In this document: in pieces, positions 27,308 to 27,982 of the stretch
How positions within the stretch are numbered: position 1 is the stretch's first letter
How the letters are laid out: each line of letters starts with the position of its first letter
IMG/VR virus record: IMGVR_UViG_3300025909_000005
Source of the DNA: a virus
Lineage: Duplodnaviria > Caudoviricetes
Length of the DNA: 64,000 nt
Reading direction: 5' to 3' (one strand)
Made by a program: the position numbers and the translations under genes
The notes under the pieces: model-generated
What the model was told of the DNA's origin: nothing
Databases searched by the model: none
What the model saw: the letters and a program-made list of their open reading frames with translations, nothing else

Positions 27308-27982
27308 ATGAAGAAGATCATCGAAATTCGGGCCGCTGAGGGCGGCGAAGACTCCAAGCTGTTCGTCAAGGACTTGACGGCAGCGTACATCAAGCTGGCT
27401 GGGAAGCTCGGCTGAACTACCCGCCTGTTGGACGAGCGTGACGGTGAGACCCACATTGAGGTCACCGGCGCAGATCTGACAGAGCTCAATCACGAGCGAG
27501 GCGGCCACCGCATTCAGCGAATTCCTCCTACTGAACGTAGGGGCCGCGTCCATTCATCCACTGTAACCGTCGCTGTCATGGACAGCATCAAGCGGGTAGA
27601 GGTCGCCTTCAACGAGCGTGACTTCAAGGTGGAGTGGTACTCGGGAACTGGAGCAGGCGGCCAACACCGCAACAAGCACCAGAACTCGTGTCGCCTCACG
27701 CACATTCCATCTGGTGAAATGACAACTGCCCAGTGCCGCTCACGAGAGAACTCTCTCGACGAGGCAAAGACCGAACTGCTGCGTCGCTTGAACGGTGGCG
27801 CTGCGAGCGCTCTACACCGGTCACGCGCTCTTGACCGTAAGGAGCAGGTCGGTTCAGGTGAACGTGGCGACAAGATCCGCACGTATCGGTTCCAGGACAA
27901 CCAAGTCAAGGACCACCAGACTGGCAGACAGACAACCTGTGAGAAGGCAATGAGCGGTCATATTGATGTGCTGTGGGCATAA
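27308..27982 (+). CDS. Class I peptide chain release factor (RF1-type, lacking domain 1) with in-frame UGA at codon 36
   Basis: IEIRAAEGGEDSKLF before the stop; HRIQRIPPT (PxT), GAGGQ, KIRTY after it; TGA at 27413-15 in frame. Confidence 0.85.

Follow-up and report, generated by a model that had tools for sequence, protein, structure and literature searches.

A conserved in-frame UGA at a tryptophan position of a short RF1-type release factor gene in jumbo rhizosphere phages

Introduction

In a phage whose commonest stop codon is TGA, why should the gene for a release factor (RF) itself be interrupted by an in-frame TGA? The question is raised by a 64,000-nucleotide (nt) stretch of IMG/VR virus record IMGVR_UViG_3300025909_000005 (Duplodnaviria; Caudoviricetes), hereafter the window, which is part of a jumbo rhizosphere phage genome and carries, at 27308–27982, a gene for an RF1-type factor with TGA at codon 36. 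An earlier note, made from the sequence alone, took this TGA for a readthrough-gated switch that would supply phage RF when RF2 activity is low or Trp-tRNA is abundant. Here we report that the TGA is kept in every relative compared, and we weigh what reads it and what it may sense.

Release factor genes under recoding control have precedents. The bacterial RF2 gene prfB is autoregulated by a +1 programmed frameshift that uses a Shine-Dalgarno (SD)-like element and CUU UGA C (Craigen and Caskey; reviewed in PMC5009743; surveyed in PMC12421855). Across the 12,753 bacterial genomes of that 2025 survey, prfA (RF1) showed no programmed recoding and the prfB cassette never contained TAG (PMC12421855). 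The eRF1-type genes Mimivirus R726 and Megavirus mg280 combine UGA readthrough with a +1 frameshift at CUU UAG C or CUU UAA C (Jeudy et al. 2012, PMC3521657), a precedent that the earlier note was right to invoke. The huge-phage literature lists RF1 and RF2 genes and leaves internal stops unremarked (PMC7162821), and a full-text literature search found no published account of a recoding-gated phage RF1.

Results

TGA is invariant at codon 36

The gene runs in a single frame from the ATG at 27308 through the in-frame TGA at 27413–27415 (codon 36) to a TAA at 27980–27982, and would encode 224 residues if read through. The SD motif, the ATG, the TGA followed by A and the open continuation with PPT and GGQ motifs all read as the earlier note had described them. 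The features of the gene are as follows.

27296–27301, + strand: Shine-Dalgarno sequence AAGGAG, read directly, 6 nt 5' of the ATG and overlapping the TAA of an upstream 83-residue open reading frame (ORF)
27308–27412, + strand: codons 1–35, forming strand beta1 and a helix with an N-terminal tip (G12, D15) equivalent to the tip of RF1 alpha5, the element reading U1 of the stop codon
27410–27424, + strand: local context of the gate, GGC-TGA-ACT-ACC-CGC, in which synonymous variation is reduced in the family
27413–27415, + strand: codon 36, the in-frame TGA that forms the gate, where the RF1 'GW' motif ancestrally has Trp
27416–27979, + strand: codons 37–224, the rest of codon-reading domains 2/4 plus catalytic domain 3
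27524–27532, + strand: PPT motif, residues 73–75
27656–27664, + strand: GGQ motif, residues 117–119
27980–27982, + strand: true terminator, TAA

IMG/VR held 263 relatives of the gene, of which the best 80 (59–72% identity) were compared at codon 36; a further 17 distinct genes came from a second scan that started from a member of 59% identity. The first set comprised 77 distinct genes, the window's included, with pairwise identities of 55–100% (median 68%). Codon 36 was TGA in all 80 first relatives and in all 17 added genes, that is, in 94/94 distinct genes of the clade when the window gene is counted. None of these genes carries TGG there, which the earlier note had regarded as a sign of sequencing error or recent nonsense mutation. 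These counts confirm that TGA is kept at codon 36 far beyond chance and is programmed: it is a built-in gate, and not the result of damage, of error or of a nonsense mutation that arose recently. At the two further conserved Trp codons (110 and 223), 77/77 genes have TGG and none has TGA.

Selection acts on the protein on both sides of the TGA, with synonymous variation on each side. Before the TGA, residues E6, E11, G12, G13, D15, F19, D22 and Y27 are invariant across the 77 genes while third-base entropy in codons 1–35 is high, and it is this pairing of invariant residues with free synonymous variation that identifies the segment as selected protein. An SD-like motif and an ATG stand at the equivalent place in 78 of the 80 relatives, and the final stop is TAA in 77 of them and in 14 of the 17 further relatives.

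Independent assemblies agree with this picture. Contigs of two independent rhizosphere samples (runs X2 and X3) span codon 36 with TGA unchanged; of the five sites nearby at which they differ from the window, four are synonymous and one lies upstream of the TGA. The comparison used Logan contigs, in which minor variants are not visible. A third run (X5) gave no contig over 27411–27505. The earlier note had also envisaged that a re-check of the sequence might turn up TGG, and these assemblies speak for TGA instead.

Automated annotation misses this arrangement. Gene calls made with translation table 11 on long contigs return only a protein of ~183 residues that begins after the TGA. The 'full-length' proteins in databases come from contigs of ~1–6 kb called with table 4, and all three of those checked match the query only if TGA is taken as Trp. 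The RF genes are thus either truncated by gene callers or silently table-4-called on short contigs, so that databases misrepresent the family.

The window uses the standard genetic code

The earlier note was right that TGA otherwise serves as a normal stop: it is in fact the commonest in the window, terminating 56 of the 106 tiled genes, several with ATGA overlaps, and the RF gene is the sole + strand gene of the window in which coding signal lies both before and after a TGA. A stop-codon-reassigned phage (code 4, TGA = Trp) was considered, and is excluded by the use of TGA as terminator and by the single TGA-split gene. A six-frame table-4 tblastn comparison between the window and relatives, made to find further conserved TGAs in frame, gave mostly off-frame noise, and only the TGA at 27413 stood out (80/80); in-frame TAG or TAA gates were also sought within the window, and none was convincing.

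Among 64 confident window genes the stops are TGA in 35 (55%), TAA in 27 (42%) and TAG in two. This near-avoidance of TAG as a terminator is consistent with amber suppressor tRNAs being carried in the phage lineage.

The product is a short factor of RF1 type

Two Pfam domains are matched by the read-through product: the C-terminal half of PCRF (PF03462; residues 4–88, 75.9 bits) and RF-1 (PF00472; residues 96–203, 64.1 bits). Among NCBIfam models RF1 scores best, with 187.5 bits against 108 for RF2 and 39.2 for PrfH (TIGR03072). The RF1 match (TIGR00019 / NF001859) lies below the model's cut-off of 400 bits and covers positions 107–334 of 347; because it begins only at position 107, domain 1 is absent. 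The gene itself starts at the equivalent of RF1 position 107–112 and lacks domain 1 wholly, and the upstream 83-residue ORF, a conceivable separate domain 1, has no match to PCRF or any other Pfam family. The assignment to the RF1 type made in the earlier note is thus borne out by domains and scores, and it needs narrowing: the factor is a short class-I RF of RF1 type with domains 2–4 only, and not an ordinary RF1.

An AlphaFold2 model of the product has a mean predicted local distance difference test score (pLDDT) of 87.9, and superposes best on ribosome-bound RF1, with a query-normalised template modelling score (TM-score) of 0.88. Its N-terminal part consists of a strand at residues 2–11 and a helix at residues 14–33. 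GGQ, PPT, HRIQR, Q70, H82 and G12 are invariant across the 77 genes; residue 83 is Ser in the window gene and Thr in 65/77. The middle residue of the PxT motif is Pro, and residue 15 is Asp throughout the family, where RF1 and RF2 have Glu (E119 in Thermus thermophilus). The T. thermophilus numbering (Q181, H193, T194, E119) was mapped from phmmer offsets and the structural literature. With a reading head composed of PPT, Q70, H82 and S/T83, the product is predicted to terminate at UAA and UAG.

Codon 36 stands at a Trp position and has a constrained context

The TGA codon aligns with the Trp of the 'GW' motif in the solved RF1 structures of Thermotoga maritima (1RQ0) and Streptococcus mutans (1ZBT), and with the Trp of ARRW in Escherichia coli RF1, as the earlier note had proposed. 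UGA is the leakiest stop in E. coli, is read nearly always as Trp according to mass spectrometry, and terminates best when followed by T (PMC11126739). We infer that Trp is inserted at codon 36.

The base 3' of the gate is A in 53 genes, G in 21, C in 3 and T in none of the 77; T follows the TGA at 8 of 35 confident window stops. The leaky UGA-A context to which the earlier note pointed is therefore present in the window, and it is not conserved in the family. Third-base entropy falls to 0.72, 1.13, 0.68 and 0.64 at codons 35, 37, 38 and 39, respectively, against ~1.4–1.9 elsewhere, and codon 39 is CGC in 67/77 genes. RNAalifold, applied to codons 20–80 of the 77 genes, found no conserved stem-loop around the gate, which makes a selenocysteine insertion sequence (SECIS) unlikely.

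A candidate decoder is encoded in the window.

18291–18366, + strand: phage tRNA-Trp(CCA), the first gene of a 27-gene tRNA array and a possible near-cognate decoder of UGA36

This tRNA was called by both ARAGORN and Rfam (61.5 bits). In its anticodon arm, CTGGTCTCCAAAACCAG, the 5' stem strand and the loop are as in a UCA suppressor tRNA of a complete relative (G005, below), save for C34 in place of U34. The decoder in the window's phage is most likely a near-cognate Trp-tRNA(CCA), either the host's or this phage copy.

Two further observations concern tRNA-Trp. ARAGORN called a second 'tRNA-Trp(CCA)' at 18700–18776 (+ strand), which was considered as a specialised reader of UGA; it has a weak acceptor stem and a 6-bp anticodon stem, has no Rfam match at gathering score and was not relied on. 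A U11-A24 pair, the state of the E. coli Hirsh UGA suppressor, occurs in ~14 of 25 distinct phage tRNA-Trp(CCA) genes of relatives (loci L081–L153), the window copy having C11-G24; with no baseline for its frequency, this is a lead only.

Suppressor tRNAs in the window and in relatives

The window's tRNAs comprise 27 ARAGORN calls at 18.3–26.9 kb and 25 Rfam matches at gathering score. No UCA anticodon was found in the window among the 27 ARAGORN calls and those two of three Rfam-only tRNAs that have readable anticodons, nor in any of ~1011 tRNAs within 10 kb of the RF gene in relatives. Two atypical tRNAs lie in the array: a 125-nt intron-bearing tRNA at 20723–20847 (+ strand), with an insertion of ~41 nt and an unsettled anticodon, and a tRNA at 20287–20362 (+ strand) with a shortened anticodon loop. 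Several tRNAs within 10 kb of the RF gene in relatives (L081–L153) have 8-nt anticodon loops, for which ARAGORN reports the four-base 'anticodons' gagt, ctcc, tttc and gtaa; these may be frameshift-suppressor-like tRNAs or miscalls.

Complete or nearly complete genomes of relatives, which use the standard code, present a mixed inventory of suppressor tRNAs.

G001 (closest relative, RF 72% identical; 97% complete): 51 tRNAs, with two tandem CUA tRNAs and no UCA; L166–L195
G004 (100% complete): one CUA tRNA, in one of L357–L386
G002 (100% complete): two tandem UCA tRNAs and no CUA; L323/L325, record positions 199793–200002
G005 (100% complete): one UCA tRNA with a Trp-like anticodon arm; L354/L401, record positions 190515–190588

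The tRNA counts for G004 and G005 are lower bounds, since the loci miss some tRNA matches and absence there is not proven. In all four genomes the RF gate is TGA and TGA is also the commonest stop. Because CUA-type and UCA-type relatives alike keep the TGA gate, the gate codon does not follow the suppressor anticodon; and in CUA-type phages without UCA that keep it, a near-cognate tRNA must read UGA. In the UCA-type phages the phage's own suppressor may open the gate, and such cognate UCA tRNAs could provide a decoding route that is absent from the earlier note.

The tandem pairs of G001 and G002 have the T-arm motif ggtcctSggttcga in common, and homology between them, with a switch of anticodon, is possible. 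BLAST comparison of the G002 pair with the other genomes gave only generic tRNA similarity, except for the locus that contains the UCA tRNA of G005.

Other short phage RF1 genes carry gates of other kinds

Gates recur in more distant short RF1 genes of phages. In low-GC huge phages, one or two in-frame TGAs interrupt the short RF1 genes, at aligned positions 38, 43 or 51; the standard code already gives 85–95% coding cover for LR756501 and LR756502, the two records tested. In a GC-rich clade, a +1 frame change falls exactly at aligned codons 36–37, at the motifs cGGAGGggtCTT-TGA, CTT-TAG and, once, CTT-TAA. The arrangement GGAGG-N3-CUU-stop makes this a prfB-like cassette with all three stops, present in loci L201, L202, L205–L209 and L307–L316. 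The parallel with prfB frameshifting drawn in the earlier note is hence stronger than was claimed, SD-CUU-stop +1 cassettes being present at the homologous site of distant short phage RF1 genes. The huge phage LR756511 has no gate.

Every in-frame gate of the readthrough type that we saw is UGA, and frameshift gates use any of the three stops. The restriction of in-frame gates to UGA fits readthrough that relies on UGA leakiness and a near-cognate Trp-tRNA. Separately, three other phage contigs (L210, L211 and L212) encode short RF2-like or divergent factors in which SPF, SPY or SEF replaces PxT, with no in-frame stop in the aligned region.

Genomic setting

The public sequencing runs that hold the window stretch are rhizosphere metagenomes, and five complete or nearly complete relatives are phage genomes of 336–524 kb. 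When 50,697 GenBank phage records were searched for near-identical DNA, none matched; the best protein match was below 40% identity, and no cultured close relative was found. An exact 36-mer taken from the gate was likewise absent from JGI metagenome contigs.

In the window the RF gene lies between the unannotated 83-residue ORF and a gene with an ETR1_N membrane domain. The latter (28015–28455, + strand, 32 nt 3' of the RF gene) encodes 146 residues with the ethylene-receptor N-terminal, ethylene-binding membrane domain PF25487 (E 1e-36), an unusual cargo for a rhizosphere phage. An RNA run (X21) yielded a 156-nt contig that matches this downstream gene without differences and a short piece near 26971–27006; none lay on the RF gene, a result neutral on its transcription. 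In relatives, recurrent RF neighbours are a DSP-type phosphatase (48 loci), a T4 Rnl1-type RNA ligase, an AAA_33 kinase and an HD_4 hydrolase (examples: L029:721–1185, L034:3691–4593, L052:3533–3991 and L096:13029–13580). This set looks like an RNA-repair toolkit and would place the RF gene in a module for tRNA and translation maintenance.

Further genes of the window were recorded as side observations.

39826–41508, + strand: Ro60-like protein with TROVE and Ro60 vWA domains; Rfam at gathering score found no Y-RNA family in the window
45707–50710, + strand: complete three-gene set PrkA - DUF444 (YeaH-like) - SpoVR (YcgB-like)

Discussion

A model for the gate

Taken together, the data argue that the full-length factor is probably made only when UGA36 is read as Trp in competition with host RF2, so that its output would be low and tied to termination efficiency. 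The gene is the only one with an RF-1 domain in the five complete or nearly complete relatives, and UGA termination therefore rests on host RF2. In the proposed mechanism, ribosomes that terminate at UGA36 through host RF2 would release a useless 35-residue peptide, and those that decode it as Trp would go on to produce the 224-residue factor. The gate would thereby keep the factor scarce and couple its synthesis inversely to the efficiency of UGA termination, doing by readthrough what the prfB gate does by frameshifting. The factor could plausibly be of benefit by taking over UAA termination when phage mRNAs saturate RF2, and relief of RF2 from UAA sites would offer an indirect route of feedback. 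The factor may in addition oppose amber suppressor tRNAs of the kind seen in two complete relatives. We infer both this benefit and the sensor role, that is, a response to RF2 level or to Trp-tRNA abundance, which was the core of the earlier note; a fixed low-level throttle fits the sequence equally well.

Several points weigh against the proposed model. The equally good account of the conservation given by a fixed throttle is one of them. An RF1-type product should be inactive on its own UGA gate, and any feedback would accordingly be indirect. Asp15 and the Pro of PxT leave the codon specificity of the factor only predicted. The frameshift cassettes, too, have UGA more often than any other stop, which pure RF1-specific self-autoregulation leaves unexplained. 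Finally, two complete relatives, G002 and G005, carry UCA tRNAs, and the window represents 64 kb of a genome that is likely larger than 300 kb, so that its UCA negative covers the window only.

Alternative explanations

These last points lead to the first alternative, in which the phage's own UCA opal suppressor tRNA, encoded outside the window, opens the gate, and the RF is made only upon its expression, within a regulon of stop-gated translation genes. The UCA tRNAs of G002 and G005, in phages where TGA is still the commonest stop, lend this idea some substance. It is unlikely all the same, given that UCA is missing from the readable tRNAs of the window and from the ~1011 that flank the gene in relatives, and that G001 and G004, which have CUA tRNAs and in which no UCA was found, keep the TGA gate.

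A second alternative, which we judge improbable, is that the UGA merely fixes, at a very low level, the yield of a factor that would do harm if abundant, and responds to neither RF2 nor tRNA levels. Overexpression of RFs is toxic in bacteria once autoregulation is removed (PMC12421855), the conservation data fit such a throttle as well as they fit a sensor, and no stimulatory RNA structure was found. Yet a weak ribosome-binding site or start codon would suffice for low yield, and 78/80 genes keep an ATG behind an SD-like motif. Moreover, other clades use at the homologous site the prfB-type cassette, which in prfB is a proven sensor of termination efficiency (PMC12421855), and stop-codon gates by nature respond to release-factor competition.

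That there is no single product, whether through pseudogenisation or assembly error, through a selenocysteine codon or through a split protein made by reinitiation, is very improbable: the first is countered by TGA in all 94 genes, by purifying selection on both sides of it and by agreeing independent assemblies, the second by the lack of a SECIS-like conserved structure, by the absence of UCA from the readable tRNAs of the window and from G001 and by alignment of the codon with Trp and not Cys, and the third, for which the ~183-residue table-11 calls and a TTG five codons (15 nt) past the TGA in the window might be adduced, by the lack of a conserved restart codon (TTG or GTG at codon 41 in 4/77 genes; among in-frame start-like codons the most frequent, a Leu TTG at codon 60, occurs in 19/77) and by the AlphaFold2 model, in which a C-terminal piece begun after the TGA would lack strand beta1 (residues 2–11) and the U1-reading helix (14–33).

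The model of Trp readthrough in competition with host RF2 can also be extended. It is conceivable, if rather doubtful at present, that the gate belongs to a wider stop-codon logic circuit of jumbo phages with the standard code, in which the RF1-type factor acts as antagonist or partner of suppressor tRNAs and the UGA reports the status of RF2 and Trp-tRNA, not the factor's own activity. In a sharper variant, the Asp15/PPT reading head may have been widened to UGA, which would make UGA, UAG and UAA gates all self-autoregulatory in the manner of prfB.

Comparison with known recoding systems

The gate resembles that of prfB in that a class-I RF gene is interrupted early by an in-frame UGA (codon 26 in prfB, codon 36 here) and full-length synthesis competes with termination. 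It differs in that the continuation lies in frame 0, so that readthrough is needed, and in that an RF1-type product should not recognise its own UGA. No prfB-type cassette is present in the window's clade: CTT precedes the TGA in 0/77 genes, and an SD-like motif lies within 21 nt upstream in 6/77.

The nearest precedent is the eRF1-type gene of giant viruses, likewise a viral class-I RF gene that needs readthrough of a conserved UGA, with Trp as the proposed residue; the CUU-stop +1 motifs with varying stops in other phage clades extend the likeness. Those viruses infect eukaryotes, in contrast, and the eRF1 fold is unrelated to RF1/RF2; the phage clade has one readthrough gate and no frameshift.

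Phage release factors have also been linked to changes of the genetic code, RF1 being reported in TGA-recoded 'Jade' phages and RF2 in TAG-recoded Lak and Agate phages (Borges et al., bioRxiv 10.1101/2021.08.26.457843). As in those phages, the RF gene here stands among tRNA genes and relatives carry suppressor tRNAs. In the recoded phages, a stop is reassigned in many late genes and the code-change genes are themselves in standard code, whereas here the code is standard and the RF gene itself is gated.

Two further systems share single traits with the phage gene. In phage Q-beta, low-level programmed UGA readthrough of the coat gene by host tRNA-Trp adds a C-terminal extension and so yields the minor capsid protein A1, the short product being functional as well. 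The use of programmed UGA readthrough by a near-cognate Trp-tRNA in a phage gene would be common to both, but here the short product, of 35 residues, has no evident function, and a folded factor would result from readthrough alone. PrfH (RF-H) is an RF homologue without domain 1 that is paired with the RNA ligase RtcB2. The phage gene likewise lacks domain 1, and in relatives it often lies near RNA-repair genes; its PrfH score of 39.2 bits is nevertheless far from that model's cut-off of 166.65, and it keeps the PxT, Q and H reading-head residues of RF1.

Implications

The clade and its more distant counterparts place an RF1-type factor under recoding control, with several interchangeable forms of gate at or near one site: UGA readthrough, CUU-UGA/UAG/UAA frameshifting and downstream UGAs. 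Nature thus supplies a series of forms with which to ask what such a gate senses. More broadly, the findings suggest that jumbo phages tune termination on host ribosomes besides elongation, and they point to a link with the unexplained suppressor tRNAs of standard-code phages.

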